The position numbers were made by a program, and so were the translations under genes. DNA of 64,000 bases from Bacillota bacterium (GTDB lineage Bacteria; Armatimonadota; HRBIN16), in NCBI GenBank assembly GCA_023511455.1, contig JAIMBJ010000014.1, forward strand, positions 1,949-65,948. Direction: 5' to 3'. This document shows positions 1,847-46,914 of this stretch, piece by piece. How positions within the stretch are numbered: position 1 is the stretch's first letter; every line of letters starts with the position of its first letter. The notes under the pieces were generated by a model that saw only the letters and a list, made by a program, of their open reading frames with translations, did no database searches and was not told where the DNA came from.

Positions 1847-1983
1847 GGTGGGCAGCCACTCATACCCCGCGGCGGCGTTTTAGTGCTGTCAAGGAGCAGG
1901 CGGGTGTTGCCCCACCTTTACGAGCATTATAGCGGGTGCAGCCGAAGAAAGCAAGGTTGTTCCCTCTACGTCGGGCATCATCG

Positions 1984-3446: not shown

Positions 3447-3459
3447 GATCAGGAAAAGG

Positions 3460-3828: not shown

Positions 3829-3831
3829 CGC

Positions 3832-4536
3832 CTACCACCCCTGCCATGGTCTGTGTCTGCCTATGCCCGGTCGTCTATGGTAATGTAGCCATTTCCAGAA
3901 AGGCGCATACCTAGGTGGCGTGTCTTGCCACTTGTGCCAATCTAAGGCGAATATTCGCTTTCCGTCTCGGTAGACATTCATTCCTACGCCACCAGTATGT
4001 TGGTAATCTATCCACTGGAAATTATATCGTCCTATTCTAACACCGTTGGAGGTCGCTACCCCACCTAAGACTCCGCCCATCCCCCCAATCAACGCAGCTC
4101 CTATCGTCTCGCACGGGCGGTAGCAATTTTGCCAGGCAAAAGCCAGCGATACGCCCTGCACCGCAAGGTCACTGCTTGCCCCAGCTAAAGCACCACCAAG
4201 CACTGCACCAGCCGTGCCCCCAATACCAAACGTCCCTGCCAAGCTGGCTCCTGCCACGCCGCCCAGCACGCCCGCAGCGCCGATAACCGCCCCCCGCAAC
4301 CCGCCATGCCAGATGTTCTCGCCGGACACCCAGGCAGTTACTCCACCTACAATACCACCGAGCACCACTCCTGCACCCACACCTGCCAATAGGGGCACAA
4401 ACATGCCGTCGGGGTCAGCAATGTTGACAGGGTTATTCAGGCAGTAGAGGTAGAGGTTGGGATGCCCGCCGGCAACACCAATCGGGTCTCTCTGAAGCCA
4501 TCGTGTGGTGCGCGGGTCATATTCGCGGGCGCCCAC
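3832..4536 (-). CDS. Orphan RHS C-terminal toxin cassette with a glycine-zipper membrane segment and an unassigned W/H/R-rich tip
   Basis: Carries GAREYDPRTTRWLQRDPIGVAGGHPNLYLYCLNNPVNIADPDGM, then a long G/A/V/I-rich stretch, then YNFQWIDYQHTGG..WHKWQ..HYHRRPG. In-frame TAA at 4540-4542 sits just 5' of HVGAREYDP. Confidence 0.7.
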   Translation of the reverse strand: MGAREYDPRTTRWLQRDPIGVAGGHPNLYLYCLNNPVNIADPDGMFVPLLAGVGAGVVLGGIVGGVTAWVSGENIWHGGLRGAVIGAAGVLGGVAGASLAGTFGIGGTAGAVLGGALAGASSDLAVQGVSLAFAWQNCYRPCETIGAALIGGMGGVLGGVATSNGVRIGRYNFQWIDYQHTGGVGMNVYRDGKRIFALDWHKWQDTPPRYAPFWKWLHYHRRPGIGRHRPWQGW

Positions 4537-4620
4537 ATGTTATAAGCATATAGTCCTGTCCTACATAGGGTATGTTGGCTGAGGCATATGCTTGCCATCT
4601 CTATAGCCATTGCCCGCGCT

Positions 4621-5289
4621 TCAAATCTCCTTCTCCAGGCGTAGCTGGGTCAAAGTAAACTGGCGCCATTCATACAGTTGCTGCACTGCCGCCTCCGATG
4701 ACTGCTCCAGCAACGACATCATCCGATTGACACGCTCCGCTATCTCCCCCATCCACGGATAGTTCGGTTCATCTTGGCGCAACTCGGTATACAAGCGAGG
4801 CAAAATCCGCCGCGCAAGACGATAATCGCCAATCAAAATATAAGAATAGGCTTTTACTTCTTGATAGTGAACATCCTTAGGATTTCCACTCTTTTTGTCA
4901 ATCCACCATATCACCTCACTGGGGGTCCGCACCTTATCCAGAAATGGTAACCCGTACTTTTGCATATACCAGTAGATTTCCTGCATCACTTGCTTCTCCT
5001 GCTCGTTATCCTCTGGACGCCACCGCCACCAGATGTCTCTGTCATGTTGAAACCATCCCAATCGCCCACCAATATTCAACACAAAGTGATCACAGGGCAC
5101 ATAGAGTGGCTGAGCGAACACCCATACCGTGAAGGCTTCCCTGTCCAGATAAGAGGTTTGAAAGTAGAAGGCACGAAGAACCATCTCCACTGGGGTGGCG
5201 TATAGAATCGTCGTCGGTTTGTACCTGAAGTTGGGCAATAGAGGTAGGATGTGTTTTCTAAACGCCTTCATCAGAATGCTGGCTTTCAT
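4621..5289 (-). CDS. Putative immunity protein (possibly DUF4304-like)
   Basis: ATG at 5289 (MKASILMKAF) forms an ATGA overlap with the toxin stop at 5286-5288. The family call is from memory of the DUF4304 N-terminal pattern and has low certainty. Confidence 0.55.
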   Translation of the reverse strand: MKASILMKAFRKHILPLLPNFRYKPTTILYATPVEMVLRAFYFQTSYLDREAFTVWVFAQPLYVPCDHFVLNIGGRLGWFQHDRDIWWRWRPEDNEQEKQVMQEIYWYMQKYGLPFLDKVRTPSEVIWWIDKKSGNPKDVHYQEVKAYSYILIGDYRLARRILPRLYTELRQDEPNYPWMGEIAERVNRMMSLLEQSSEAAVQQLYEWRQFTLTQLRLEKEI

Positions 5290-6029
5290 CTGGGGCGTAC
5301 CTCCCGAATAGGAATATTTTCGCAACCTTTGGGGAGATGCCGACGTATCTGCTCAATCCGTTTCGGTGTCAACTGCGCACCTCCTGTCTTCAAATCCCAA
5401 ATCTCCTTCGGCTTATCAAGACGACCTCTAACCGCATCTACCCGTACTGAGCCCCGGGAACCTCTGGGTACTACCACACCGTTCCTATAGGATACCTCAG
5501 CGCGGATTCGTCCACGCGAGATTTGTTGCACCTGCTTTGCGAACTCCGTATGAACACGAGTCCCATGCGCAGCACCACGACCAGAACCTACGATACGCTG
5601 CGCATTATTCGCTGCCTGTTGAACCTGCCTCGCAGCGCGCGCAGAAAATATGAACTCTCCCACGCCCAGCGTAGCCGCTGTAATCAAACACTCACGACCC
5701 ACTCCAGCGAAGAAGTTGCTGGTATCAAAACCAACCTGATCTTTGTAAGCGCCTCCATCCCACAAGCCAAAAGTGAAGACACTGCCAACCGCCGCCAATC
5801 CCGTCTTGAGACCTTCTGACACAACCTCACTGTTGAAGAGGAAAGGTCCTATCCAGATTCCATCCTCTGTCTTCTTGAACCAGTCCTTTCCTCCGTCATC
5901 TGCCATGTTGATGGGGTCATTGCCCGCATACCGATACAGGTTCGGGTCGCCGGAGGCGATGTCAATCGGGTCGCGTTGGAGCCATCTTGCGGTGCGCGGG
6001 TCGTACTCGCGGGCGCCGACATGATACAA
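5286..6029 (-). CDS. Orphan RHS C-terminal toxin cassette, PD-(D/E)xK nuclease-like tip
   Basis: Carries LYHVGAREYDPRTARWLQRDPIDIASGDPNLYRYAGNDPINMAD. The tip has HGTRVHTEF...VRVDAV...IWDLKTGG, a D...D-x-K pattern. The frame is open back to 6110 (RWNGAYGYEYIPATG) and sits directly behind the TAG of the HEAT gene in the same frame. Confidence 0.7.
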   Translation of the reverse strand: MYHVGAREYDPRTARWLQRDPIDIASGDPNLYRYAGNDPINMADDGGKDWFKKTEDGIWIGPFLFNSEVVSEGLKTGLAAVGSVFTFGLWDGGAYKDQVGFDTSNFFAGVGRECLITAATLGVGEFIFSARAARQVQQAANNAQRIVGSGRGAAHGTRVHTEFAKQVQQISRGRIRAEVSYRNGVVVPRGSRGSVRVDAVRGRLDKPKEIWDLKTGGAQLTPKRIEQIRRHLPKGCENIPIREVRPR

Positions 6030-6110
6030 ACCTGTGGCTGGGATGTACTCATACCCGTACGCCCCGTTCCAGCGGGAGGGCTGGCGCGTGGTCTCCGCGT
6101 GAGCGTTCCG

Positions 6111-6929
6111 CTATTTCTTCAAACGCGCCACTACCTTCTCCACCATCTTGCGGAACTCGCCTTGACTACGCTTTGCCATCCGCTCCGCAAACCGTGCCAA
6201 TATCGCCTCCCGTGCCTCCCGCACCTTCAAACGCGCCAACCCACGCGCCGCCTCTAACGCGACGCCATCGTCAAAATCCTGCAACAACTCCAGCAACAAC
6301 TCGCGCAGCCCTTCAGGACGAAAGCGAACCATTGCGCGTAAGATTTGGGTGCGTGCCGAACCGTAGCGTGGGTCGCGCACAATCTCCAACAGGTGGGGCA
6401 GGTCTTCCCGCTGCGCCAGATACCCAATCGCATTCCCAAAAGCGAAAAGCAAACTCTCCCACGGAGCCAGCGTGCGGATGCGACGCTGCATCTCCACTGG
6501 CAGTTCGTAAAAATCGCCCAGATCAACGTGAGTCTCTGAAAGGCGTTGGTACTCCCGCGCCAGTTCTGCGTTCCACGGCACCTGCTTGAGCTGTTCTATC
6601 AACACCGAGTTGGCAATCCCGCGTGCTTCCTTCACAGTTAGGGCTCTTGTCAGCATCTCTTTCACCCGAGGATGCTGCACTGTGCGCAAGAGATCGATCA
6701 GCGTTGGAATGACCTCAGGGTACGAAAGCCCAGTATTGACCAGTGCGTCTAGCGGCGAGAGTGGTTCTGTTTGCCAGAGAGCGCGTGCCTCTGTTTCATA
6801 CTGGACAATCTCTCGCACTCTGGGAAACTGCTCCAGCACACGGTCGACCTTTTCGTACTCGCTTTGGCGCAGTTGTTCATCAAGCGCGAGTTCCAGCATC
6901 GGTTCATCTACAATCGGTTCCATCGCCAC
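6111..6929 (-). CDS. HEAT-repeat protein, putative immunity protein (copy 2, complete)
   Basis: Repeated HEAT/PBS-lyase-like units (LLEIVRDPRYGSARTQILRAM.., DDGVALEAARGLARLK). The more likely start is the ATG at 6923, preceded by GAGGTG. Confidence 0.65.
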   Translation of the reverse strand: MAMEPIVDEPMLELALDEQLRQSEYEKVDRVLEQFPRVREIVQYETEARALWQTEPLSPLDALVNTGLSYPEVIPTLIDLLRTVQHPRVKEMLTRALTVKEARGIANSVLIEQLKQVPWNAELAREYQRLSETHVDLGDFYELPVEMQRRIRTLAPWESLLFAFGNAIGYLAQREDLPHLLEIVRDPRYGSARTQILRAMVRFRPEGLRELLLELLQDFDDGVALEAARGLARLKVREAREAILARFAERMAKRSQGEFRKMVEKVVARLKK

Positions 6930-6932
6930 ACC

Positions 6933-7172
6933 TCATAGTATGGGCTTGTGGATGCTTCTACCCTGTCGGATGAGGTCTTGCAGTCGTTTATCCAAGACCG
7001 TATTGCGTCGTGTGATGAGTACAAAGGTGTGGTTATAATTCTTGCACCACTCTAAATAGTCTTGAAGTTGTTTGGTGTATCGCAGCTCGCGGACATTCTT
7101 TACTTCTTCAAGTGTGCACGCATTTTTATTAACCTCTTCAGGGAACGGGACCCCTTCGATTGAGCAGTGCAA
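6933..7172 (-). CDS. 79-aa ORF, possible truncated toxin-tip remnant (copy 2)
   Basis: Same evidence as 454-693. The open frame extends 5' to a TGA about 60 nt upstream and contains no ATG or GTG. Confidence 0.3.
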   Translation of the reverse strand: MHCSIEGVPFPEEVNKNACTLEEVKNVRELRYTKQLQDYLEWCKNYNHTFVLITRRNTVLDKRLQDLIRQGRSIHKPIL

Positions 7173-7249
7173 AACACATACGCCGTTAGGAAAGTTAGAA
7201 ACTACACATGGCTTATATACTCACCGCAGCACGGTTCAAACAGCCAAAT

Positions 7250-7552
7250 CTAACCGCTTTCGCTATCTGCAGATTCAACTTTCGCTATAGCTATCAGAAT
7301 CTGTTGACAAACTTCCTCGTCTCCGAAAAATGAAGGACTCTCTCTACGCCACTCTTCGTTTGGTTCGTAGTAATCAAGGTCGACTGCAAGATCGTTAAGA
7401 ATGTCCCAGATCTGCTGCTCACCTGGTGCGATCTCATCCTCTCTGGTGTCCCACACCAGCTGCTGAAACCTGTTTATCCTTTCGGAGCGATTCTTCGGGT
7501 TCTCAATCGCTTCCTTGAGCAACCCGATCAGCATCTCCAACTTTGGACTCAT
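7250..7552 (-). CDS. 100-aa putative immunity protein (copy 2)
   Basis: Identical to 771-1073. SD GGAGGGG. Confidence 0.55.
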   Translation of the reverse strand: MSPKLEMLIGLLKEAIENPKNRSERINRFQQLVWDTREDEIAPGEQQIWDILNDLAVDLDYYEPNEEWRRESPSFFGDEEVCQQILIAIAKVESADSESG

Positions 7553-7584
7553 CCAGCCCCTCCAAGAGAATTTTACCCACCAGG

Positions 7585-8459
7585 CTATCTACATCGTACA
7601 GGCTGATAGCGCGGACTTAGCTCGCGTGTCACAAAAGTAGTTGTGACCTTACCAGTTACAGGATTACGCGCTACTACAAGATGTTTTCCACTAGCCATTC
7701 CGTGTTCGAGAACGTGGATGATTGTTTTCGTTTTAGGATCCCAGAACTGCCTGCCACGTTCTGTGGCTTTTCGCACCATCGCCGGAGTAATCCCGCGTTC
7801 GGACATACGTTGCAACGCATGCTTAGAAAAAACAAGACGCGGTGCCAAAGCTGTGGATGTACGCGCACCACCAACTGCTGTTGCTTGCCTAACAGCGCCC
7901 CGCACTCCTTGGGAAGCCGCTGCTTTTGCCGTAGCAGCACCCCCAAACACCATCTCATCCCCTGGAACCACAGAGGAAAACCCTGCCAGCAGTAGGGCAC
8001 CGCCCCACAAAGTCGCATCCCACGCCAGCTGCCATCCCGACGCCTGTCCGCAATCATAACGCCCTGCCGTCGTACCGAACCGCTCTGTCAAACCGAACAT
8101 CAAGTTCTGATCCACCCACTGGCTCAGCCCGCCCATTCCGCCCATATACCAGCGTTTGAGATCTTCCCAAAAGTCTAAGCCAGAGGGGTCTGCCAGGTTC
8201 ACGGGGTCGTTGAGACAGTACCGATACAGGTTCGGGTCGCCGGAGGCGATGTCAATCGGGTCTCTCTGCAGCCATCTTGCGGTGCGCGGGTCATATTCCC
8301 GTGCGCCCACGTGGTACAAGCCGATGGCAGGCGTCCACTCATATCCATAGGCAGCGTTCCAGCGGAAGGGGTTGAAGGTGGTGCCGTGCCCCACGCATCG
8401 TAACTGTAACGGTCGGTGATGTTGCCTGAACTGTCAAGGAGCAAACGGGTGTTGCCGCG
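7585..8459 (-). pseudogene. RHS remnant: about two YD repeats, core end and DUF4258-like toxin tip, with a frameshift (copy 2)
   Basis: GNTRLLLDSSGNITDRYSYDAWG (8395-8459) lies one frame off from GHGTTFNPFRWNAAYGYEWTPAIGLYHVGAREYDP. The shift is at the C-run 8389-8392. An in-frame TGA at 8460-8462 closes the remnant. Confidence 0.75.
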
Positions 8460-25884: not shown

Positions 25885-28800
25885 CTAACGGTTTGCAACT
25901 ACCGCGACCGGTGGCGGCTGCAGCAGGCGCTGGCGCATCTGGCGGGCTTGCACATGGTAGCCCTCGTGCAGGTAGAGCCAGAGCCGCACACGCGCCGGAA
26001 GCACTGGCTGGGCCACCAGTTCGATAGTGGCGTAGCGGCGCGCCTCGGCGGGTTTGCCGCGCTCCTCGCCCCAGAAGCCCTGCCGTACCCGATTGCAGCC
26101 TACGTTTTCCATAAGCAACAGGGAAAGGCTCTCGCTCAGGTCGCCGGGATGGAAAAGCGTCAATACCGGCGGAACCCAGTCGCCCATGCGCCAGCCGAAA
26201 TGCACCTTCGGGCCGAATATCTCTGTCGGCTGGTCTCCCGTGCCCACGAAGTTCGGGAAGGTCTTCGTCCACCAGCGGGCGTTGAATCGCGCCTCCAGCG
26301 CAACGAGTTCCTCTGCTTCCGCCGCCAGCGGATGCACCTGCACGCTCATCTCTACCAGTGGTAGACCGGCAAACACGCGGTAGCGCTGCGTTGCCCGCAG
26401 GGGCAGGTTGCCCCCGCCAGCGGTGGCCTCCACCGTCACCCACACCGGATTGCGCTCTATCACCCGCACGGTTGCCCTGCCGTTGCGTTGCCACACGATG
26501 TCGTCTACCACGAACTGTGCGGTGTCCTGCGCAGGGCGTTTGGGGTCGCTCCTGCCGAATGTGCCCATCCCCGCGCCGCCGCTTTGCGCGGCGTAGTCCC
26601 TTCCGGTGCGTTTGGAACGCAGCCGGGTGATTGTGCCTCCGGCATCCTCGCGCCACTCCAGCTCCAGCACGCCGTTGTCTATCCGCACCACTCCGCTGCC
26701 GGTCTGTACCTGGATAGACGGTGAAGGCGCTTTCCGCGCTGGCGATACCCCCAGCAAGAGCAAGCCGCTTTCCTCTACTGGCTCCAGCGCTATCCAGTCC
26801 AGCGCAAGGTTGCACACCCGGCGGTCGTTGCCTGCACCCCTCTCCGCCGGACGATGCGCCTGCGCAAAGAGCAATCGTACCTCTGCAGGTTGAGGAGACG
26901 GGCTTTTGCGTGGCGGCAGGTTCACCGCCAGAGTTTGCCAGCCAGGGCGCATCTCGACCTCGTCTACCTTACGCCCGTCGACGAAGACAGCCAGTCTGTT
27001 CTGCCAGAGCACCTGCCCGTGCAGCAACAGGCGGTATGTGCCTCCGGCGGGAAGGGGCAAGCGCAGCACTGTCTCGCGTCCTTCTCCGGGTATCCAGCGT
27101 ATCGTATTACCCTGTGCCCATGCCTCGCGTTGAGCCATGCCGCGCACAAGCACCTGCTCGTCGCCGGGGGAGCCGATATCGATGCGCCAGCTTTGAGTGC
27201 GCGGGGGGACAATGAAATGCATCCTGCCGTTGGCGATATGTGTGGGCAGGGGAGTACCATCGGGCAGATGTACCTGCCACGCTCGCCTACGCAAACCCCC
27301 AGGCAGTGGAACAGACAGCGGCGTCCCTCGCGCTTCATCTGCGCTGGCGATCAGCAGGCAGGATGCCTGCCCCTGGCGGGACGCGGGTAGACGTCCCGGC
27401 GCAGAAGCAATTACAAGCGGCGCTGTGCGTTCGTGTATACCTGCGCTGTCGCGCCAGCGGAGGGTAACGTTTGCCCGGCGGGCTTGCGGCTGTGCGCTGA
27501 ACGGTATCGGTAAACGCACCTCTTTGCGCACGCCCTCGCGCAGTTCGCCAACGCGGATACGCGCCCCTGAAAAAACGACCTCCACGTCGCGGGCGGTCTC
27601 GCCGGGCACGTCCTGCGCAGGGTGCCACCATCGCATGTCGCCATACGGGGTGCGCGGCGCGTTGGTGACCACGACCGCAGGCGCGTGAGAGCTGGCAGAG
27701 GTGTGCAGCAGGCGTACATCCGCGTTGCGCCCCACCAACAGTGGACGCAGCAGATACGCCGTTTGCTCCCGCCCATCGGGCTCCTGCCACGAGACCTGTA
27801 CGTACACCGTCTTCATGCCCCAGTCGGCGAAGGGTTTGACCTCGCAGGGCAGTTGCACCTGCTTGCTCTCCGCAGGCGCAAGGCGCAGGGTGATTGGTTT
27901 GCCCTGCACGCTGGCGATTTTCGCGCCGATTTGCAGCGTCACGCTGACCGGCGCCGAGGTCAGGTTCTTGACCGTCACAGGCAGGTTCACGATGCTGCCG
28001 GGATAGGCAAGCCACTGACGGGTATTCACCTGCACCGGCGCGTAGACCAGCTGATAGGCAGAGACGTATTGCACCGTGTCTTCAAATGGAAGAGAGGCTA
28101 CCCGACGCGGGATAAAGTGCCTGCCGTCTATGGTCAGGGTGGTCACTTCCGCCAGCGGCAAGCCGTCCGCTTCCGGGGGATGCAGCCGGATGGTCTGCGG
28201 CTGCCAGGTGCGGTTTTCGACGAGCAGGAAGCGGGTGGTTCCTGCCTGCAGCACCGCGCCCATCAGGTCGGGGGTGTCGGGCAGGTTACCATCGGCGAGG
28301 CGGAGGCATTTCTCGCAGGGCAGGCCAGCCACTTCTTCCAGCGCTTTTGTCCACCAGCGTGGGTCGTCGGTGAAGATGCCGTTCACCGCGAGCAGACGGG
28401 AGCTACCGATCTCTGCCAGCACGTCGCGCGGCAAGCCGTCACTGTAACGGCTAAGTGCTTTGCCTTGCGGCAGGCGGCTGCGACGGCGCTGCAGGGGAGC
28501 ACGGAAGACCGTATCGCCCTCGGTGAAGCGAGCGGCGTCGATCGGCTCCCATTCCACGCTCTCTTTCTCGCCTGCGGGTGCGTCGGGAGTAGAGATTTGC
28601 ACCCAGTCCAGCGCGAGGTTGCAGGCTCGGCTCTCGTCTTTGAACCGCTGTGGCTCCTTTTCGCGCGGTATCATCGCCTCCGAGAACTTCCACTGTACCT
28701 CCGCCACCCGCGAGGCACCGATAGCGGAGGCAGGGATACGCACCTCGTACACTCGCCAGCCCGGTTCCAGCATGACCTCGCCAACCCGCTCATCGTGGAC

Positions 28801-30549
28801 TATCACGCGCACCTGGTGTTGCCACATCACGCTGCCGTGCCAGCGCAGGAGCAGGTCGGTATTCGGCAGGGCAGGAAGCAGAAGGGTGGTGATTGTGCCT
28901 GTGCCGGGCGTCCAACGAACGGTTGCCTGAGTGCCTGCGCCGTATGCCCCTGGTGGCAGGTTGCCCCAGTCCTCGCGCCCACTGAATCCGGTCTGTAATA
29001 CCCGCTCGTCGCCCGGCACGCCAATGTCTACCAGGAAATTGAACCGCCGGGCGGGTGTTCCGGATTGCACGGAGGGTGTCGCAGGCATCGTTTCGCCGGT
29101 CCAGTCCTCTGGTAACGCCGAGACGATCAGCGTGCGGTCGCCCTGTTGGAGCCATTCTCTCAGCACTTGCGCAATCCGTTCCCGCTTGCCGTTCAGTCCG
29201 AAGCCCGCTCCACCGGATGGCGCTATCAGCACACGATAGTTTCGCAGATGTTCCATGTCGGCCTCACTCTGCAGAAGCACCTCGAAGGGAGCCTGTATTG
29301 CCCGAAGAGCCTGCACGGCATGGTAAAGGTCGTTGGGGTCGCCTGTGCCGCTTTCGAAAATCCAGTCGTTGACCAGCAGGGCGACGGGGGCTTGCATTTG
29401 CGGACGGGGGTAGGTCAGCTGCCAGAGGGTGCTGTAGAGCAGGTTCGTCTCGCAGAAGCGTTTGCCACCTTCGAAGCTCGGCTCGAGATTAGAGCCTTCC
29501 CACCACTCGTTCCAGCTGAGATGCAACACGCCGTCCACGAATCGCATCAGGTTGCCCACCCAGAAGCGGTCGTAGTGGTGTGGTTCGGGGAGGTAGCCGG
29601 TACCCGGCACGCGGATGCCCCAGTCGAAGTAGCGGTGCTTGAGGTGGTCGAAGAACACGCCGCCGCACCTGCGAGTAACCGCCGCCTGCAGGAAGCGTTC
29701 TGCATCCTGCTCGTGAGGCACCCCGAAGATGCCAGCATACGAGTGCGCCCCGCCGAACACACGCGCAAACCGCTCGAAGCCGAAGCCCATGAAGGGCGCG
29801 TAGCCCACGTCGAAGGAGGCAGAGAGACCGGGCAAACCAAACTCCTGCTGTATCAAATCCTCCATCTTGCGCCAGTCGCGTTGCCATATCTCATACTGAT
29901 ATTCAATGCTCAGCGCACGCTGGAAGCCAGTGCTGTTGACGTCCATGCGGATATCTTCGAAGCGACGATACTGTGTGCCCCATTCTGCGTTGAGGCGATC
30001 GATGGTCTGGTACCTCTCCCGCAACCACTGCTGGAATCCCTGATGGTGCACGGTGAGTTGCGGCGCGCCGTTGCGCGAGTAAACCAGCTGGAACGGCTTC
30101 CCGCCCAGCCACGTCCACACGGGCGAGCGGGCATACTGGCGCATCCAGTAGACGGTGTCGCGTCGTTCGCTGACGTTGCGCCAGAACTCGCGCATGGCGA
30201 AGTTCTCGCCGTCCTGATACAACCCCATGAAGAGGCGATAGCCCAGCGCATGTACACGCTCAGTGGCTTTCAGCACGGTGGCTTCACGAGGCTCCCCCCC
30301 TTCGCCGCGCCAGTCGTGCCCCCAGTAGTCCATGTACAAGTGAGTCATTCCCCAGTCGGCGGCGAGCAATTGCGAGCGCACATTGTCGGCGAGCTTGCGG
30401 TTGTCGTAGTAGCCGTACAGGGGCGTATTGTGGACGCCGTTGATCCAGTTTCCCCACTCGCCCGCGTGCGTGTCCCATTCGTACCAGTAAAAGTATGCTG
30501 CACCCACCAGGGGCAGTTTTTCCGATACCTGGTGCATATCGGGCTGCAT
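25885..30549 (-). CDS. 1554-aa multidomain glycoside-hydrolase-like protein
   Basis: N-terminal TIM-barrel-like region with SWNEWWEGSNLEP (GH99/WbsX-like motif) and QQWLRERYQTIDRLNAEWGT (GH42-like motif). Two copies of an unassigned domain of about 135 aa. GGGAGGG SD before the ATG at 30549. No signal peptide seen. Confidence 0.7.
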   Translation of the reverse strand: MQPDMHQVSEKLPLVGAAYFYWYEWDTHAGEWGNWINGVHNTPLYGYYDNRKLADNVRSQLLAADWGMTHLYMDYWGHDWRGEGGEPREATVLKATERVHALGYRLFMGLYQDGENFAMREFWRNVSERRDTVYWMRQYARSPVWTWLGGKPFQLVYSRNGAPQLTVHHQGFQQWLRERYQTIDRLNAEWGTQYRRFEDIRMDVNSTGFQRALSIEYQYEIWQRDWRKMEDLIQQEFGLPGLSASFDVGYAPFMGFGFERFARVFGGAHSYAGIFGVPHEQDAERFLQAAVTRRCGGVFFDHLKHRYFDWGIRVPGTGYLPEPHHYDRFWVGNLMRFVDGVLHLSWNEWWEGSNLEPSFEGGKRFCETNLLYSTLWQLTYPRPQMQAPVALLVNDWIFESGTGDPNDLYHAVQALRAIQAPFEVLLQSEADMEHLRNYRVLIAPSGGAGFGLNGKRERIAQVLREWLQQGDRTLIVSALPEDWTGETMPATPSVQSGTPARRFNFLVDIGVPGDERVLQTGFSGREDWGNLPPGAYGAGTQATVRWTPGTGTITTLLLPALPNTDLLLRWHGSVMWQHQVRVIVHDERVGEVMLEPGWRVYEVRIPASAIGASRVAEVQWKFSEAMIPREKEPQRFKDESRACNLALDWVQISTPDAPAGEKESVEWEPIDAARFTEGDTVFRAPLQRRRSRLPQGKALSRYSDGLPRDVLAEIGSSRLLAVNGIFTDDPRWWTKALEEVAGLPCEKCLRLADGNLPDTPDLMGAVLQAGTTRFLLVENRTWQPQTIRLHPPEADGLPLAEVTTLTIDGRHFIPRRVASLPFEDTVQYVSAYQLVYAPVQVNTRQWLAYPGSIVNLPVTVKNLTSAPVSVTLQIGAKIASVQGKPITLRLAPAESKQVQLPCEVKPFADWGMKTVYVQVSWQEPDGREQTAYLLRPLLVGRNADVRLLHTSASSHAPAVVVTNAPRTPYGDMRWWHPAQDVPGETARDVEVVFSGARIRVGELREGVRKEVRLPIPFSAQPQARRANVTLRWRDSAGIHERTAPLVIASAPGRLPASRQGQASCLLIASADEARGTPLSVPLPGGLRRRAWQVHLPDGTPLPTHIANGRMHFIVPPRTQSWRIDIGSPGDEQVLVRGMAQREAWAQGNTIRWIPGEGRETVLRLPLPAGGTYRLLLHGQVLWQNRLAVFVDGRKVDEVEMRPGWQTLAVNLPPRKSPSPQPAEVRLLFAQAHRPAERGAGNDRRVCNLALDWIALEPVEESGLLLLGVSPARKAPSPSIQVQTGSGVVRIDNGVLELEWREDAGGTITRLRSKRTGRDYAAQSGGAGMGTFGRSDPKRPAQDTAQFVVDDIVWQRNGRATVRVIERNPVWVTVEATAGGGNLPLRATQRYRVFAGLPLVEMSVQVHPLAAEAEELVALEARFNARWWTKTFPNFVGTGDQPTEIFGPKVHFGWRMGDWVPPVLTLFHPGDLSESLSLLLMENVGCNRVRQGFWGEERGKPAEARRYATIELVAQPVLPARVRLWLYLHEGYHVQARQMRQRLLQPPPVAVVANR

Positions 30550-30700
30550 GATGAGGCACCCTCCCGCGTATGGTCTCGGAAGCCATCGTTCTTGATGGGG
30601 TAGAGAACTTCCTGTTCGGCGGTTGCGCCGACTCTTTCCTGCACTTCGGCGCTCGCACGAGGTTTTTTTCAAATTTTACGAAAAACCCGCAGGAAAACGC

Positions 30701-41680: not shown

Positions 41681-42568
41681 ATGTCTGCAGGTATCACCCA
41701 TCCAGATGTGCTGGTCAGCACCGACTGGGTGGCGCAGCATCTGGGTGACGAGAGCATTCGCCTCGTGGAAGTGGACGTCGACACCAGTGCCTACGATTCG
41801 GGACACATCCCGGGCGCCATCGGCTTCAACTGGCAGACCCAGCTGCAGCATCGCGTACGTCGTGACATTATCACACGCGAGGAGTTTGAGCAGCTGCTGA
41901 GCGAGTCAGGTATCGGTAACGACCATACGGTCGTCCTATATGGGGACAACAACAACTGGTTCGCCGCGTATGCCTTCTGGCTGTTCAGTATCTACGGACA
42001 CGAGAAGCTCTATCTGATGGATGGGGGACGCAAGAAGTGGGTGGCGGAGGGACGCCCGCTAACCACTGAAGTGCCCCACTATCCCCGTACCCAGTATCAC
42101 GCGAAGGAGCCGAACGTGGCTCTCCGAGCATATAGCGCACAGGTCATGCAGGCAATCAACAACCCGCAGGTAGCCTTAGTCGACGTGCGCTCACCGCAGG
42201 AGTTCACCGGGGAGGTTATCGCACCACCTGGCATGACCGAGACGGCACAACGCGGCGGTCACATTCCGGGCGCCGTGAACATCCCATGGGCGCAGGCAGT
42301 TAACGAAGACGGCACCTTCAAGAGCGTCGATGAGCTGCGCGCGCTGTATACCAGCAAAGGCGTCACGCCCGACAAGGAAGTCATTGCCTACTGCCGTATC
42401 GGGGAGCGGTCATCGCACACGTGGTTTGTGTTACGACACCTGCTCGGCTATCCGCACGTGCGCAATTACGACGGCAGCTGGACGGAATGGGGCAACCTCG
42501 TCGGGGCACCCATTGAACGCGAACAGCCTGCGTCACAAACGCTGGCGGACCCACCGTGTCCGGCGTGA
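41681..42568 (+). CDS. Two-domain rhodanese sulfurtransferase (thiosulfate / 3-mercaptopyruvate type)
   Basis: GHIPGA occurs twice. Active-site loop YCRIGERSSHTWF. Confidence 0.9.
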   Translation: MSAGITHPDVLVSTDWVAQHLGDESIRLVEVDVDTSAYDSGHIPGAIGFNWQTQLQHRVRRDIITREEFEQLLSESGIGNDHTVVLYGDNNNWFAAYAFWLFSIYGHEKLYLMDGGRKKWVAEGRPLTTEVPHYPRTQYHAKEPNVALRAYSAQVMQAINNPQVALVDVRSPQEFTGEVIAPPGMTETAQRGGHIPGAVNIPWAQAVNEDGTFKSVDELRALYTSKGVTPDKEVIAYCRIGERSSHTWFVLRHLLGYPHVRNYDGSWTEWGNLVGAPIEREQPASQTLADPPCPA

Positions 42569-43369
42569 GGACGTCCTGTGCGTCACCACCAGCAGCGCCG
42601 CGCCTGCCAGTAACGTCATCGCCGAAGCGGGTTCAGGTATAGGCACGGGCGGGTTGACCGATACGTCACCTCCCTGCGAAAGCCCCAGCCCTGCCACGAT
42701 GAACAGGGGTAGCAGGGGAAACGCTCTCGGTCGCCCGATGAGAGGCTCCAGCGCAGGCTCGCTCTGCGCAGCCAGAGGTTCCGCCTGCCACACCGACAGG
42801 CTGATTGGCACCAGCGGAGGAGGGTCTGGAGGGCTCGGCAGATCAAGAAGAGTGGTTGGCGCGGCAGGTTCCAGTAGAGGTGGCTCACGCGGCGGCGCGA
42901 CCGGGGGAGTGATGACCCTGGGCGGCACGACGGTCACCCTGCGCGGCGGAGGATAGCCGGGCAGTACCGATGTCAGGGGGTTGCCGCATGTGCCCAGCAG
43001 CACTGGTTGCCCGGACCGCAGATGCAGGAATACCCGCGTGCCCTTCGGTAGATAACGCGCCCGGCTTTCGACGTCGCCGTCGGCTCGGATGAAGAAAACG
43101 CGGAACACGCCGCCACGGGGTAGCCTGCGCAATCCGAGGTGAGTCTGTGCATACTGCGCAAACTCTGGAGCAGGTACCCCAAAATGCCGGGCATACCGGC
43201 TGGCAACCACCGGGTTCGCCCTGACCTGATTTGCCAGCTGTGCGGCACTGGTGGCAGGTTGAACCAGGAACGAACCTCGAGGCATCCGGGCAGCTTGCGC
43301 TTCGCTGGAGACAAGCAGCGTTGCCGTTAGCCATATTAGCCACAGGAGAATCGTAATCCACAGCCTCAT
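42533..43369 (-). CDS. PEP-CTERM protein with unassigned conserved N-terminal domain (paralog 2)
   Basis: Signal peptide, MPRGSFLVQP...CGNP domain, P-rich linker, C-terminal PIPEPASAMTLLAGAALLVV..RR. Confidence 0.7.
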   Translation of the reverse strand: MRLWITILLWLIWLTATLLVSSEAQAARMPRGSFLVQPATSAAQLANQVRANPVVASRYARHFGVPAPEFAQYAQTHLGLRRLPRGGVFRVFFIRADGDVESRARYLPKGTRVFLHLRSGQPVLLGTCGNPLTSVLPGYPPPRRVTVVPPRVITPPVAPPREPPLLEPAAPTTLLDLPSPPDPPPLVPISLSVWQAEPLAAQSEPALEPLIGRPRAFPLLPLFIVAGLGLSQGGDVSVNPPVPIPEPASAMTLLAGAALLVVTHRTSSRRTRWVRQRL

Positions 43370-43428
43370 TTTGCACCGAGCATCCCTCTGCACCAGTTTA
43401 CCATCAGAAGCCGGTTCTCGCAAGATGT

Positions 43429-44256
43429 CTATGGCTTCCCCCTGCTCCTCCCTTTTGCGAAAAGCATTCCTGCACCTGCCACTGCCCACAACACGAAAGA
43501 AGCAGGCTCAGGCACTGCAGGAGGTGGTGGTGAACCTCCACGCCCTGAGGCAGATCCCCCCAGCGAGAACAGTCCGCTTGCGCCCACCATCAACATCGGC
43601 GTCAGTGAGGCAGGAGGTGCAAAAGCTGTCACCGCGCCCTGTGGCAGAGTGAACTCGGGCGCAGATAGCATGGCATCCGCTGCCCACAAAGGCAGGTCTA
43701 CGTCTTGAATCTGCGATAGTAACTGCGCCTCGGTTGTGTCTGGCATAAGCGACGCCACCGGTGGCGGCAAAGGATTTTCGTGCACTGGCTCGGCTGGCAC
43801 AGGGTCAGCCGTTTCTGGTACGGCTCGGTTCCTGGTCTGCGATGGCGGTGCAGTATACCCCGGCAGGTTAGTGCCCATGGGGTTACCGCACTCCGCCAGC
43901 AACACCGGTTTGCCCGTGCGCACGTGCATGAAAACCGCCGTGCCTTTGCGCAGTTTGCGCACGCTGCTTCCGATGGTGCCATCGGTTTTGATAAAGTACA
44001 CTCTGTAGCTGCCGCCGCTCTTCAGCCGCTGAAATCTCAGCCGGCTTTGTGCATAGTCCGCGAATCGCGAAGCGGAAACCCGGTAGTGTCTCTCATAGCG
44101 CGCAGCGACCACAGGATTCGTTCTCACCTGTTGGGCAAGTTGCCATGTGCTTTGCACGGGTCGCGTCAGGAAAGAACCGCGTGGCATGGGCGCGCTCCAT
44201 GTCGGCACAGCGTAAAGCAAGAGAAGCCCAACGGCGAACAGGACGCGGATGTTCAT
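43429..44256 (-). CDS. PEP-CTERM protein with unassigned conserved N-terminal domain (paralog 1)
   Basis: Signal peptide, MPRGSFLTRP...CGNP domain, C-terminal VPEPASFVLWAVAGAGMLFAKGRSRGK. Confidence 0.7.
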   Translation of the reverse strand: MNIRVLFAVGLLLLYAVPTWSAPMPRGSFLTRPVQSTWQLAQQVRTNPVVAARYERHYRVSASRFADYAQSRLRFQRLKSGGSYRVYFIKTDGTIGSSVRKLRKGTAVFMHVRTGKPVLLAECGNPMGTNLPGYTAPPSQTRNRAVPETADPVPAEPVHENPLPPPVASLMPDTTEAQLLSQIQDVDLPLWAADAMLSAPEFTLPQGAVTAFAPPASLTPMLMVGASGLFSLGGSASGRGGSPPPPAVPEPASFVLWAVAGAGMLFAKGRSRGKP

Positions 44257-44380
44257 GCACACTCACTCCCTTTAAAGTAACTTCACTGAGATTAGACAGC
44301 AAGTCCCGCGCCGTAGGATGAGTATTCAGCCAGTATCATTACTGGTTTTTCCTAAAGAATGGCAGAAACAACAGGTTGAA

Positions 44381-44425
44381 AGAGGAAAACAGAAGGGAAC
44401 CCGATGGGGGTACGGTCGGATTCCC
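44381..44425 (-). terminator. Probable intrinsic terminator after the sigma gene
   Basis: 10-bp stem with one mismatch (44395-44404 / 44416-44425), then a U-rich tract on the minus strand. Confidence 0.5.
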
Positions 44426-44450: not shown

Positions 44451-45770
44451 TCAGGCAGCGAGGTCTTCCTGGTGCGCTTTGCCCCAGTAGGCTCGCAACC
44501 TGCATTGTGTCTGATGCACAAACTCCCTGACCTTCTCCCAACCCTCCGTATAGTTACATGCGCTCTCGATCCACAACCCGGAGTCGAGCAGGTTTTCTTC
44601 TCTGAGCATCTGTAAAGCCTCTTCACTCAATCGTTGCCGTACGACTTCCGCCTGCTCGCCGGTGTAGGGCAGGATGATTGCCAGGTCTGAAACGTCGATT
44701 CGTGCGGGGATGTCTGCCTTGCGGATTTTCGCCCGCAGGCGCGGTGCCAGACGCGCCATGATGCCTTCAAACAGGTTCAATCCATACTGTCGGATGAACA
44801 TCTGTGAACCACCAACGCGGATGATAACCAGCCCCAGCATATAGCCATATCGGCTGGCGCGGTTTATCTCTTCGTCCAGCCTGCTCTCGAAGTAGCGGCG
44901 ATTGTAACAGCTGGTAATGGGGTCGACAATGGATGGTTGCAGCAGTTCCTCCTCGGTAGCCGTCATCTTCTGCTGCATCCGCATCATCTGTGCCTGCGCG
45001 TCTTTGATTTCCTCGGTCACCAGTATCTTGCGCAGTTTCTTGGTGGAGTTGCGCAGGATATGGGACACGTAGTTGCAGGAGATGCCCAGCCGCTGGGCGA
45101 TTTCCGTTTGCGAGAGCTCCTCATAGAAGAAAGCGTACAACACCTGCCGTTCGATATCTTTCAGCCGCTCCATCGCGTGTTCCAGCACCACGCGCTCCTC
45201 GGTGGCAATCTGAAGGGTGAAGCTGTCCGGGTGTTCCAGCTTTTCGAGGTCCGCACCGGGGATGTGGTCGTCTTCCTCGCTTTCACCCGCATCCAGTGAG
45301 CTCACCCGAAACAGTTCGCTGGTGGAAAGCAGATATTCCACCTGTTTTTCGTCCATATTCATGACCGCGCCGATTTCAGCGGATGTCGGTTGTCTGCCCA
45401 GCTGTTGGGACAGCGAGTCCACAATACGGGTGAGTTTCTGATGCAGTTCCTGAACCCATGCGGGCACCTTGATCATCTTGCCCCGGTCACGCAGATAGTG
45501 CTTAATCTGTCCGATGATGAAGTGGGTGGCATATGTGGAAAACTTCGTGCCCTTATCGGGCTTGTACAGGTCGATGGCGTTGAGCAAACCGACGTAACCC
45601 TCTTGAATCAGGTCTTCAAGGGGCTCACCGGTGTTGATGAACCGCCGGGCAATGCTTTCCACCAGATTGGGAAACTGCTCCACAAGACGTTCACGGAGTT
45701 CGAGATTGCCTGTCCGGTGGTACTCGATGACGAGCTGCTGTACCTCATCGTCGTTATATCTCTTGGACAT
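44451..45770 (-). CDS. Group-3 (SigB/F/G-like) sigma-70 factor fused to a degenerate GGDEF domain
   Basis: Region 2 LIQEGYVGLLNAIDLYKPDKGTKFSTYATHFI. Region 4 LSQTEIAQRLGISCNYVSHIL. C-terminal DPITSCYNRRYFE...RKADIPARIDVSDLAIILPYT aligns to GGDEF domains. GAGGGAG SD. Confidence 0.85.
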   Translation of the reverse strand: MSKRYNDDEVQQLVIEYHRTGNLELRERLVEQFPNLVESIARRFINTGEPLEDLIQEGYVGLLNAIDLYKPDKGTKFSTYATHFIIGQIKHYLRDRGKMIKVPAWVQELHQKLTRIVDSLSQQLGRQPTSAEIGAVMNMDEKQVEYLLSTSELFRVSSLDAGESEEDDHIPGADLEKLEHPDSFTLQIATEERVVLEHAMERLKDIERQVLYAFFYEELSQTEIAQRLGISCNYVSHILRNSTKKLRKILVTEEIKDAQAQMMRMQQKMTATEEELLQPSIVDPITSCYNRRYFESRLDEEINRASRYGYMLGLVIIRVGGSQMFIRQYGLNLFEGIMARLAPRLRAKIRKADIPARIDVSDLAIILPYTGEQAEVVRQRLSEEALQMLREENLLDSGLWIESACNYTEGWEKVREFVHQTQCRLRAYWGKAHQEDLAA

Positions 45771-45882
45771 CCCTGTCGCTCCCTCTGGATTTGCTAGGAT
45801 ATTCCCGGAACGCATCCAGCGTTCCACAAAGGGGCTACACTGGTATTATCGGCACGCGAGAGGCGATTTTTACAGTACAGGC

Positions 45883-46914
45883 TTACTGAATCGTGCTAAT
45901 CGGCACAGGCGCGCTCACGGGATGAGCAGATGTATCGTGGAAGAGTTTGTCCACCAGCTCGCGAGCCTTCTCCTCGTCGGCATACACGTACACTCGCCCG
46001 GGACGGCATGGCAGGGTCACCATCTGGATATTGGTTGAGGGTACCGACTTGGCAAACCATGCCAGCGCAAGCATCTGCCCGTAACTGAGGGAGCTTTTCA
46101 GATTCTCATCCACCGCATCCAGCAGCTGAGGCAGTTTCAGGTAGGTGCTGGGGTGGCGAAAATGGTCTTTCACCGCCGCGAGGAACTTGTGTTGCCGTTC
46201 AATCCGCATCAGGTCGCTATCCTGACGGTAACGCACGTAGCCCAGCGCCTGCTGACCGTCCAGCCGATGCCAGCCGGGTTCCAAATGCACGTGCAGGTCG
46301 CCCCAGTTGTCATCGTAGTGCATGGGCTTGTCCACGTAGATAGTGATACCGCCGAGCAGGTCTACCACACGACGGAAGACACGGTAGTAAACCACCACGT
46401 AGTGGTCTACCGGCACGTCCAGCCATTCCTGTATTGTCTGGGAGGTGAGTTCCGGTCCGCCGAAAGCCATGGCGGCATTGATTTTGTGATAGCCGTGGTC
46501 AGGAATACGGACGCGCGTATCGCGCGGGATGGACAGCACACTGATGCGCCTGTTTACAAAGTCAAAATGCGCCAGCATGATGGTATCGCTGCGGGTGTGC
46601 TTGGTGTAGATGCGTTTCTTGTTGTCACGGTTCTCGTCGGAACCCAGCAACAGCACTGTCACCGACGATTGCCCCGGAAAGGCTTGCGCGACGTCCAGCC
46701 CCCGGTACTGCCACAGCGCGCCTACCGTTTTGCGAACCGCCTTGCTGGACGCATAAAAATAACCGCTGACCGTGCCGATAGACAGCGCACCCAGCATCAA
46801 CAGTACGAGTACGACTCGCCAGAAAAGACTGCGGCGTTTGCGCCGGTTGACTTCCTGTCGTGCCAAAACATCACCCCCCACGCCCAGTATACCAAAAAAA
46901 GCGGCACTCTGCAA
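45883..46914 (-). CDS. LytR-CpsA-Psr (LCP) family protein
   Basis: LLLGSDENRD...RSDTIMLAHF...SIPRDT...KINAA. N-terminal TM anchor. Start uncertain (TTG). Confidence 0.85.
   Translation of the reverse strand: MQSAAFFGILGVGGDVLARQEVNRRKRRSLFWRVVLVLLMLGALSIGTVSGYFYASSKAVRKTVGALWQYRGLDVAQAFPGQSSVTVLLLGSDENRDNKKRIYTKHTRSDTIMLAHFDFVNRRISVLSIPRDTRVRIPDHGYHKINAAMAFGGPELTSQTIQEWLDVPVDHYVVVYYRVFRRVVDLLGGITIYVDKPMHYDDNWGDLHVHLEPGWHRLDGQQALGYVRYRQDSDLMRIERQHKFLAAVKDHFRHPSTYLKLPQLLDAVDENLKSSLSYGQMLALAWFAKSVPSTNIQMVTLPCRPGRVYVYADEEKARELVDKLFHDTSAHPVSAPVPISTIQ

Follow-up and report, generated by a model that had tools for sequence, protein, structure and literature searches.

A candidate c-di-GMP-gated group 3 sigma factor with a degenerate GGDEF domain in Armatimonadota

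A sigma-GGDEF gene and its flanking signals

The window, by which we mean the whole 64-kb stretch of DNA that was analyzed, carries on its (-) strand a gene (44451..45770; 439 aa plus a stop codon in the list of open reading frames) that encodes a sigma factor fused to a GGDEF-like domain. The frame is uninterrupted over 44451..45827; the ATG at 45770 is preceded by a Shine-Dalgarno sequence, AGAGGGAG, and translation from it yields a protein of the same length as most homologues (438-440 aa). Upstream on the same strand lies a gene for a LytR-CpsA-Psr (LCP) glycopolymer transferase (45883..46914; Pfam PF03816, 147 bits). Downstream, again on the (-) strand, a pair of paralogues is encoded (43429-44262 and 42533-43489), each with a weak PEP-CTERM tail; their scores of 14.7 and 15.1 bits fall under the Pfam cut-off of 20.7.

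A sigma-28-type promoter motif, TAAA-N15-GCCGATAA, was identified upstream of the fusion gene (45846..45872, (-)). It is an exact match, at 12 of 12 positions, to the sigma-28 consensus, and it is the sole match in the 64 kb, against 0.1 expected. A search of the window for a second strong site gave none that was convincing, the best matches lying inside coding regions. Gene context could be assessed at 77 loci. L001-L008 denote the loci of the window's own clade; the motif is kept in L001-L005, L007 and L008, and L006 keeps the -10 element. Furthermore, a related motif, CCCTAAAG-N15-GGCAATAAT, is present in 37 of 48 stand-alone loci whose flanking genes otherwise differ. The gene is probably transcribed from its own predicted sigma-28-like promoter and, because the motif is kept beside it in otherwise non-syntenic loci, probably positively autoregulated. 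SigB and SigF are the nearest matches of the sigma moiety (see below), whereas the promoter looks like one of FliA type, and therefore another sigma factor might read it.

The conserved 5′ leader (45771..45842, (-)) has a fold energy of -28.1 kcal/mol (z -2.7). It contains a hairpin, GGAACGCUGGAUGCGUUCC, at 45807-45825, with compensatory changes at two of the hairpin pairs in 9 sequences, and a CCCCUUU segment that is able to pair with the Shine-Dalgarno sequence. A scan of the window against Rfam matched no family. Immediately 3′ of the stop codon, a terminator-like hairpin followed by a T-run (44384..44425, (-); fold energy -20.3 kcal/mol, z -3.5) is kept in L001-L007. An 8-mer enriched upstream of some homologues, CGTACGATGGGAACGAAG, was also considered; it most likely represents the true start and N-terminal codons (ATG GGA ACG AAG) and not a regulatory element.

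Sigma moiety, stalk and degenerate GGDEF domain

The original prediction for this locus had described a complete group 3 sigma factor, and all three of its regions were indeed recognized above the Pfam gathering scores: sigma region 2 (residues 29-97, 45480..45686, (-); PF04542, 66.2 bits against a cut-off of 24), which we take to serve core binding and -10 recognition; sigma region 3 (residues 109-168, 45267..45446, (-); PF04539, 44.4 bits against 25.3); and sigma region 4 (residues 199-248, 45027..45176, (-); PF04545, 46.2 bits against 24.1), presumably the helix-turn-helix that recognizes the -35 element. The general sigma-70 family model TIGR02937 likewise scored 100.8 bits, against a cut-off of 42.9. 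In the homologue alignment, T82, H83, G87, I89, H91, L93, R94 and D95 of region 2 are invariant, as are S231-H237, L239 and R240 of the region 4 segment SCNYVSH-LR (residues 231-240), in which I238 is found in 112 of 114 sequences.

Among the subfamily models, the SigB/SigF/SigG model TIGR02980 matched best, with 194.8 bits, a score below its NCBIfam cut-off of 234.35; the FliA/WhiG model TIGR02479 (123.6 bits, cut-off 189.6) and the NCBIfam SigF model PRK07408 (167 bits, cut-off 261) also scored below their cut-offs. The segment KFSTYATHFIIGQIKHYLRD in region 2 is SigB/SigF-like. When the sigma moiety was compared with the sequences in the PDB, the closest solved structures were S. aureus SigB (E 3e-32) and SigF (E 2e-30), with weaker matches to FliA (6pmi, E 9e-18) and WhiG (6pfv, E 2e-17). 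By its sequence, the window protein is a SigB/SigF-like group 3 sigma factor and a member of a conserved Armatimonadota family.

Region 4 is connected to the GGDEF domain by a helical stalk (residues 249-282, 44925..45026, (-)), assigned from an AlphaFold2 model and a heptad pattern. In the model, residues 232-277 form a single unbroken helix; hydrophobic residues occupy the a/d heptad positions 255, 258, 262, 265, 269, 276 and 279, and the length of the stalk is constant, at 34 aa in 99 of 114 sequences. The model has a pTM of 0.42, and the arrangement of the domains and the docking of the GGDEF domain on the sigma domains are not readable from it. The fixed-length stalk, the sigma-28-like promoter of the gene and the C-terminal Ala-Ala described below are all features absent from the original prediction.

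The same four domains, in a protein of about 440 aa, are found in 120 of 120 listed homologues drawn from NCBI, JGI, ENA and Logan assemblies. A search of species-representative genomes located relatives at 349 places, nearly all of the named ones being Armatimonadota, and the best 80 of these 349 all extend beyond the I-site. An orthologue is present in the cultured species Chthonomonas calidirosea (MAG locus L027) and in thermophilic relatives. A query with the C-terminal 164 aa alone returned 23,790 matches in the representative library, a number that confirms the GGDEF homology and does not resolve the distribution of the fusion. The original prediction had proposed a survey across genomes and had named an assembly error as a concern. 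The fusion proves to be conserved across the phylum Armatimonadota, and because the reading frame is unbroken, the architecture is shared by independent assemblies (120 database clusters and the best 80 of 349 genome loci) and the linker has a constant length, an assembly or gene-calling artefact that joined two genes is ruled out as vanishingly improbable. Full-text searches of the literature turned up no description of a sigma-GGDEF fusion; the original prediction had been aware of none either.

The C-terminal part of the protein had been read as colinear with GGDEF domains, subject to a profile search. That search is significant, with Pfam PF00990 matching residues 281-389 at 58.9 bits against a cut-off of 23.8 (E 6.7e-16), and together with structure matches and the AlphaFold2 model it delimits a degenerate GGDEF domain at residues 283-430 (44481..44924, (-)). 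The model has a pLDDT of 94-98 over residues 290-410 and 90-92 over 410-430, and its alpha/beta elements run in the GGDEF order; Foldseek matched the model to SiaD (7e6g), a cyclase built of a stalk plus GGDEF, and sequence matches in the PDB were to DgcR, PleD, TpbB and FimX. At the A-site, GG(D/E)EF is replaced by DVSDL (residues 359-363, 44682..44696, (-)), exactly at the coordinates first proposed, and the corresponding columns are variable: GG[DE]EF occurs in 0 of 199 family sequences. The metal-binding segment is lost, as had also been predicted. The equivalents of PleD D327, K332, N335 and D344 are R, Q, I and E; the metal-/guanine-binding columns D327, K332 and N335 are unconserved, while the D344 position keeps an acidic residue, and the equivalents of PleD G368, G369, E370 and E371 are not conserved. 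As judged from these residues, the losses show that the domain is incapable of c-di-GMP synthesis. The protein does belong to the GGDEF family, but with the motif in no member and the metal- and base-binding residues gone, the idea of a diguanylate cyclase, active or acting locally, that is tethered to RNA polymerase is refuted at the sequence level and hardly credible.

In contrast to the A-site, the primary I-site is kept, as R350-K-A-D353 (RxxD; 44712..44723, (-)). The arginine and the aspartate, the equivalents of PleD R359 and D362, are invariant in 121 of 121 sequences, and position 351 is K or R in every sequence. Five residues separate RKAD from DVSDL, as in the canonical RxxD-x5-GGDEF arrangement, in exact agreement with the original prediction. 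In a PDB sequence search, RKAD aligned with RKSD, the I-site of DgcR (6zxm, E 3.5e-11), which is a Rec-GGDEF cyclase; its depositors mutated this I-site to AKSA in the entries 6zxb and 6zxc. Furthermore, R380 (44631..44633, (-)), invariant in 121 of 121 sequences, is the equivalent of PleD R390, the second arginine of the primary I-site. By alignment mapping, R304 and R307 of helix alpha-1 (44850..44861, (-)) occupy the positions of PleD R313 and DgcR R163, respectively; R304 is again invariant in 121 of 121 sequences, and R307 is invariant too. PleD R390, PleD R313 and DgcR R163 have primary or in-trans secondary I-site roles in the cross-linking of one GGDEF domain to another by c-di-GMP (PMC8041772). 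These five I-site positions fall within only 11 invariant positions among the 148 residues of the domain (chance 8e-7). The aligned residues show that the domain keeps the full set which in diguanylate cyclases binds an intercalated c-di-GMP dimer and cross-links a pair of GGDEF domains in a back-to-back arrangement. Not every degenerate GGDEF domain binds c-di-GMP. Those with an RxxD are an accepted type of receptor, PopA being an example (PMC12564702).

The C-terminal Ala-Ala and the genomic partners of the gene

The protein ends in Ala-Ala (44454..44459, (-)), a candidate degron of ClpX type as judged from its conservation and from the tail, which is disordered in the AlphaFold2 model (residues 436-439, pLDDT <50). 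Ala-Ala closes 195 of 198 complete sequences, comprising 121 of 121 in the homologue alignment and 74 of 77 complete ORFs at the loci; the three exceptions end in VA, VA and KA. As background, 10 of 705 other ORFs (1.4%) end in this way. A C-terminal Ala-Ala is needed for recognition by ClpX and is not sufficient for it. In the case of the orphan factor sigma-AntA, which has a C-terminal Ala-Ala in 67 of 71 orthologues, ClpXP degrades the sigma factor directly and replacement of AA with DD stabilizes it (PMC7142297). A tRNA and tmRNA search, aimed at a local ssrA tag ending, found none in the window or the loci.

The window contains neither an RsbW nor a STAS gene. Similarly, no recurrent anti-sigma family appeared among the top 25 families listed from 127 small neighbouring ORFs in at least 70 loci. 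The recurrent, family-wide partner of the sigma-GGDEF gene is instead the type IV pilus operon pilB-pilT-pilC: in 29 of the 77 assessable loci, belonging to two deep clades, the gene lies directly 3′ of pilC and closes the operon. The element G[GC]C[AG]ATAA, which is the -10 element of the promoter motif described above, is present upstream of 6 of 20 pilB genes compared with 11 of 609 other genes (p = 4.6e-6), and is missing upstream of the remaining 14 of 20 pilB genes. The regulon of the family most likely includes type IV pilus genes. The cyanobacterial group 3 factor SigF autoregulates and drives pilA1 (PMC2532724), and in Fimbriimonas, which is non-motile, there are numerous pilus genes and just one sigma gene with the annotation fliA (PMC4072686). 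The supplementary tables of the Fimbriimonas genome paper gave no identification of this 'fliA' gene.

The immediate neighbours in the window suggest another output. The one-strand order LCP, sigma, PEP-CTERM, PEP-CTERM is shared by the window and L001-L007 (on the short contig L008, only LCP is kept), conserved blocks lie upstream of the PEP-CTERM gene, and pil genes are absent from the window. All of this would fit an output here in which the neighbouring LCP transferase and PEP-CTERM proteins remodel the envelope or biofilm, rather than an output through pili, an envelope or biofilm role being what the original prediction had read from these neighbours. However, the synteny with LCP is confined to L001-L008 and that with PEP-CTERM to L001-L007, all within the window's own shallow clade (>83% identity), and it was rejected as a trait of the family on that ground. 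The sigma gene has its own predicted promoter and terminator, its promoter motif is absent upstream of the PEP-CTERM gene, and the PEP-CTERM matches themselves score below the Pfam cut-off. We therefore find the proposed output unsupported as a family property, and consider it unlikely as an explanation here. A SigB-like reading of the conserved blocks upstream of the PEP-CTERM gene, GTTT-N-GGGTAT, was dropped, as its spacing does not fit.

A model for gating in cis, and its known relatives

On balance we favor, as slightly more probable than not, the view that the protein would be an orphan, autoregulated and proteolysis-prone group 3 sigma factor that c-di-GMP gates in cis and that has a link to type IV pili. 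The original interpretation, of a sigma factor carrying its own c-di-GMP sensor, is thus supported in part, with nucleotide binding being what we infer from the conserved residues. In this model the protein would act as a one-component c-di-GMP-responsive sigma factor. Binding of c-di-GMP at R350, D353 and R380 of one chain and at R304 and R307 of a second would lock a stalk-linked dimer. The lock would alter how well sigma region 4 (and region 2) engages core RNA polymerase or, alternatively or additionally, how accessible the Ala-Ala tail is to ClpXP, and therefore the messenger would determine how active or how long-lived the sigma factor is; the effect of c-di-GMP might be either activation or inhibition. 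The GGDEF domain in cis, together with proteolysis, would take the place of an adjacent anti-sigma factor.

We also put forward, tentatively and as possible rather than probable, a more specific proposal: that this is the first sigma factor to be itself a second-messenger receptor. A c-di-GMP dimer would cross-link the dead GGDEF domains of two chains via both I-sites, and the rigid stalk would switch the protein between a polymerase-competent state and a sequestered or ClpXP-sensitive one, so that a phylum lacking flagella would couple c-di-GMP to type IV pilus and surface promoters in the absence of an anti-sigma factor.

Two other readings of the GGDEF-like domain were weighed. It might be a ligand-independent dimerization or scaffold module, or a docking site for a protein, with c-di-GMP irrelevant. 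Degenerate GGDEF domains that work without c-di-GMP are generally known to exist, the stalk heptads could yield constitutive dimers, and no c-di-GMP cyclase, phosphodiesterase or other GGDEF protein was found in the 64-kb window or the locus flanks. We nevertheless regard this reading as somewhat unlikely, for it leaves unexplained the invariance of exactly the five I-site positions amid a drift of the rest of the domain to ~30-40% identity. Alternatively, the I-site pocket might bind another nucleotide (cGAMP, pGpG, GTP or (p)ppGpp), such that the sigma factor would be gated by a different messenger. The conserved Arg and Asp residues point to a guanine-nucleotide site, which does not in itself prove specificity, and a literature search found nothing on nucleotide signalling in Armatimonadota. 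However, a primary RxxD combined with an extra arginine and a secondary arginine is a site for intercalated c-di-GMP dimers in every known solved case (PMC8041772), and another nucleotide appears quite improbable.

The favored reading, gating in cis by c-di-GMP, can be set beside several known systems. c-di-GMP is known to act on transcription by way of repressors, activators or riboswitches, and once by way of an anti-sigma factor. For Streptomyces sigma-WhiG, c-di-GMP is bound by the separate anti-sigma factor RsiG via two E(X)3S(X)2R(X)3Q(X)3D motifs (PMC7005675). The present system resembles sigma-WhiG/RsiG in bringing together a group 3 sigma factor, a coiled coil and a c-di-GMP dimer, the last of these being a prediction here. 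It differs in having as its putative sensor the I-site of a cis-fused GGDEF domain, with no anti-sigma gene nearby, and in a sigma moiety that, unlike WhiG, is nearer SigB and SigF. The RsiG-type motif was found neither in the window protein, stalk included, nor in any of 120 homologues.

A dead A-site with a kept RxxD is shared with PopA, PelD and SgmT. Those proteins are response regulators, membrane proteins and kinases, none of them a sigma factor, and in contrast to them the secondary I-site arginines are also conserved here. PopA ties c-di-GMP to ClpXP proteolysis (PMC12564702). The closest relatives of the C-terminal half in sequence or fold are the cyclases with coiled-coil stalks, namely the product-inhibited Rec-GGDEF proteins DgcR (6zxm), PleD and WspR, and also SiaD (7e6g); these are enzymes with Rec or other N-terminal input, whereas here the N-terminal part is a sigma factor and catalysis is lost. 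The protein has in common with sigma-AntA the lack of an anti-sigma partner and the conserved C-terminal Ala-Ala, but sigma-AntA is an ECF (group 4) factor without a sensor domain or a link to a second messenger. The group 4 sigma factors of ECF41 and ECF42 carry SnoaL-like or TPR extensions at the C-terminus, and no extension of this type is known to bind a nucleotide messenger. As in these factors, a C-terminal domain in cis is proposed here to substitute for an anti-sigma factor. Finally, cyanobacterial SigF is likewise a group 3 sigma factor of bacteria without flagella and with a link to type IV pili, but it lacks a GGDEF domain and has different promoter elements, TAGGC and GGTAA (PMC2532724).

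If the model is true, this would be the first sigma factor to sense c-di-GMP directly, providing a new, shorter route from the messenger to promoter choice. The protein is small, candidate promoters are defined, and orthologues occur in cultured and thermophilic organisms, which should make the family well suited to biochemical and structural work. It would offer a compact one-polypeptide, one-ligand system in which a C-terminal extension on sigma region 4 may gate holoenzyme formation. The family also bears on how ligand binding may be coupled to a ClpXP degron, and on the regulation of pili in the poorly studied Armatimonadota.

Domain architecture and conservation of the fusion

The sigma-GGDEF gene (44451-45770) lies within an open minus-strand reading frame (44451..45827); its ATG at 45770, with AGAGGGAG just upstream, gives a 439-aa product, as long as most homologues. 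Pfam calls all three domains of a complete sigma part, as originally predicted, namely Sigma70_r2 (residues 29-97), Sigma70_r3 (109-168) and Sigma70_r4 (199-248), and the GGDEF-like C-terminus is recognized as a GGDEF domain (281-389; 58.9 bits vs a gathering score of 23.8). The top NCBIfam model is SigB/SigF/SigG, at 194.8 bits below its cut-off of 234, and the FliA/WhiG model gives 123.6 bits; among solved sigma factors, S. aureus SigB (E 3e-32) and SigF (E 2e-30) come nearest by sequence, with FliA and WhiG far weaker. A PDB sequence search with the C-terminal 164 aa finds solved GGDEF cyclases, with DgcR at the top (6zxm, E 3.5e-11), and RKAD aligns onto the DgcR RKSD I-site, the motif that the depositors of 6zxb and 6zxc changed to AKSA. 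An AlphaFold2 model built from a 114-sequence alignment has pLDDT values of 94-98 over residues 290-410 and 90-92 to residue 430, and Foldseek matches it to sigma factors and to the stalk-plus-GGDEF cyclase SiaD. Residues 232-277 form one helix running from the final helix of region 4 toward the GGDEF domain, and disorder is modelled for the linker between regions 3 and 4 (153-189) and for the final four residues; because the pTM is 0.42, the way the domains are placed relative to one another is unreliable.

All 120 homologues listed have the four domains at about 440 aa, and the architecture can be considered established. Their source annotations read 'sigma-70 family' or 'sigma-B factor' and never name the GGDEF part. 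A genome scan taking one genome per species found relatives encoded at 349 places, the best 80 of which all reach beyond the I-site; together with the 120 homologues, these rule out the assembly artefact that the original prediction had raised as a possible source of the fusion. Named relatives are nearly all Armatimonadota (Chthonomonadales, Fimbriimonadales), including a Chthonomonas calidirosea genome. The two copies in MAG JBBRJW01 (L045 and L051) indicate paralogues in some lineages.

Residues of the GGDEF domain, stalk and C-terminus

The positions first assigned to RKAD (44712-44723) and to DVSDL at the A-site (44682-44696) are exact, and the five-residue gap between them is the canonical spacing. 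In our alignment to the GGDEF domain of PleD, which covered the window protein plus 120 homologues, free variation is seen at the A-site, at the metal-binding aspartate and at N335 (PleD numbering), and GG[DE]EF occurs in none of 199 family sequences; the proposed loss of catalytic and metal-binding residues is thus established at the sequence level, which excludes diguanylate cyclase activity. The proposed retention of the inhibitory RxxD also holds, as the positions of PleD R359 and D362, and likewise R390 and R313, are invariant (121/121), and the R366 equivalent is retained in 120 of 121. As described for DgcR and PleD, a c-di-GMP dimer bridges two GGDEF domains, joining the primary I-site (RxxD, plus R390 in PleD) of one to a secondary-site arginine of the other, which is R313 in PleD and R163 in DgcR, at positions that are not homologous (PMC8041772). 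The window protein has both, R304 at the PleD R313 position and R307 at the DgcR R163 position (by the PDB sequence alignment), and both columns are invariant. Only 11 of the 148 GGDEF-domain residues are invariant and five of them are exactly the I-site residues (chance 8e-7), which is the strongest argument for a c-di-GMP receptor acting as a cross-linkable pair. The domain could alternatively be a ligand-independent scaffold or bind a different nucleotide ligand; we infer from the conserved residues that it is a putative c-di-GMP receptor working as such a pair.

The stalk (residues 249-282) has hydrophobic residues at a/d spacing (255, 258, 262, 265, 269, 276 and 279) and is 34 aa long in 99 of 114 sequences, an evidently fixed heptad stalk that resembles the coiled-coil stalks setting GGDEF geometry in cyclases. 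Recognition of the ssrA tag by ClpX depends on Ala-Ala-COOH. All 121 aligned sequences end in Ala-Ala, as do 74 of the 77 complete ORFs among 79 recovered from genome loci (2 were cut by contig ends), vs 10 of 705 neighbouring ORFs; the tail is clearly conserved. The other three end in VA, VA and KA, the last being L051. The same tail is conserved in sigma-AntA, an orphan ECF factor that ClpXP degrades in vitro and that an AA-to-DD change stabilizes (PMC7142297). We propose that c-di-GMP dimers would join two chains via their GGDEF domains and that the stalk would relay this cross-link to sigma region 4, changing holoenzyme formation, the exposure of the Ala-Ala tail to ClpXP, or both, to activating or inhibiting effect.

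Expression signals and genomic neighbourhood

Between the LCP stop codon and the sigma-GGDEF start codon, TAAAAATCGCCTCTCGCGTGCCGATAA (45846-45872) exactly matches the sigma-28 consensus TAAA-N15-GCCGATAA, which has no other match in the 64 kb (0.1 expected). The full motif is kept in L001-L005, L007 and L008 of the window's own clade, and L006 retains the -10 element. Of the 48 loci in which the gene does not follow pilC, 37 have a related two-block motif, CCCTAAAG-N15-GGCAATAAT, 60-190 nt 5' of it, and the 8-mer GGCAATAA is present in 20 of 41 loci (0.1 expected). The gene has its own conserved predicted promoter. A separate FliA-like sigma factor may read it; flanking genes differ among the stand-alone loci, leaving the sigma gene as the promoter's sole constant neighbour, so that positive autoregulation is the simplest reading. 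The conserved 5' leader (45771-45842, minus strand), for which Rfam has no family, contains a hairpin, GGAACGCUGGAUGCGUUCC, in which two base pairs have changed in a compensatory way across 9 relatives, and a CCCCUUU segment able to pair with the Shine-Dalgarno AGAGGGAG, which hints at translational control. A terminator-like hairpin lies 3' of the stop codon.

In 29 of 77 assessable loci, which belong to two clades that split deep in a neighbour-joining tree, the sigma gene lies directly 3' of pilC on the same strand, in the order secretin, pilB (MshEN plus T2SSE), pilT, pilC (T2SSF), sigma. We regard this recurrent linkage to pilus genes as established. The -10 element G[GC]C[AG]ATAA occurs within 250 nt 5' of pilB in 6 of 20 cases vs 11 of 609 other genes (p = 4.6e-6), and at the top site (L078) the -35 block is present as well. 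Two precedents would fit a pilus regulon for the family: SigF of cyanobacteria controls its own expression and drives pilA1 (PMC2532724), and the non-motile Fimbriimonas ginsengisoli is rich in pilus genes, with just one sigma gene annotated fliA (PMC4072686). In the Fimbriimonadales-type loci L068, L069, L073, L079 and L080, a variant GTAAAG-N15-CTGCCCAAAATA, which may be a diverged form of the same promoter type, lies about 35 nt 5' of the called pilT start or overlaps it. PilB ATPases 5' of the sigma gene (L009:1673-3397 and equivalents) carry MshEN (PF05157), a domain type known from some MshE and PilB proteins to bind c-di-GMP; in the L009 protein, the motif at the N-terminus agrees only in part with the published binding motif.

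The 64-kb window contains no pil genes and no second strong promoter site of the sigma-gene type. An envelope output through the LCP and PEP-CTERM neighbours is the competing reading for the window's clade: an LCP gene and two PEP-CTERM-like genes do accompany the sigma gene, as first noted, and within the family they do so only in L001-L008 (>83% identity). The two PEP-CTERM-like genes (42533-43489 and 43429-44262, minus strand) are paralogues sharing an N-terminal domain of ~130 aa without a Pfam family (MPRGSFL...NPVVA.RY..H....FA.YAQ...GG.YRV.FI..DG...CGNP); the PEP-CTERM-like tails of both fall short of the cut-off, and we recognized no exosortase in the window. Upstream of the first, 44263-44380 (minus strand) has three blocks conserved in L001-L007, CCTGTT..CTACCGTTTTTC, CCnGTAAnAATAC and CTTGCTGTCTAA (44291-44303), matching neither the sigma-gene promoter motif nor the sigma-70 consensus. 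In a set of 127 small ORFs no more than two genes away from homologues, no family occurs in more than 6 and none of those listed is an anti-sigma or STAS family; a neighbouring anti-sigma gene is absent.

Other window genes are housekeeping or miscellaneous (rhodanese, metallo-beta-lactamase-fold RNA hydrolase, YbjQ, a GlmU-like protein and others). A low-GC block at 771-8394 (minus strand; 53% vs about 60%) contains an array of Rhs/YD-type core-end and C-terminal toxin cassettes, with YHVGAREYDPRTARWLQRDPI...DPSG repeated at the N-termini of ORFs 1106-1846, 3832-4536, 5286-6029 and 7585-8394, interleaved with small, immunity-gene-like ORFs without Pfam matches; ORFs 771-1073 and 7250-7552 encode identical proteins, the mark of a direct duplication. 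The ORF at 25885-30672 (minus strand) encodes 1595 aa.

Relation to known systems

The closest functional analogue is RsiG/sigma-WhiG, in which RsiG, a separate anti-sigma factor, binds c-di-GMP via ExxxSxxRxxxQxxxD motifs (PMC7005675), in line with the original statement that known c-di-GMP control of sigma activity goes through a separate protein; a motif search found no such motifs in the window protein or its 120 homologues. For the sensor half, the closest structural relatives are the product-inhibited cyclases DgcR, PleD and SiaD, the closest receptors PopA and PelD, the closest proteolytic analogue sigma-AntA, and the closest cis-extension analogues ECF41 and ECF42; none unites all features of the sigma-GGDEF protein. 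Full-text literature searches found no description of the fusion, consistent with the initial remark that no such architecture was known to be described. The family is noteworthy for being conserved, coherent and open to direct testing; its parts are known, and their new combination, with c-di-GMP as the putative ligand, implies a new regulatory route.
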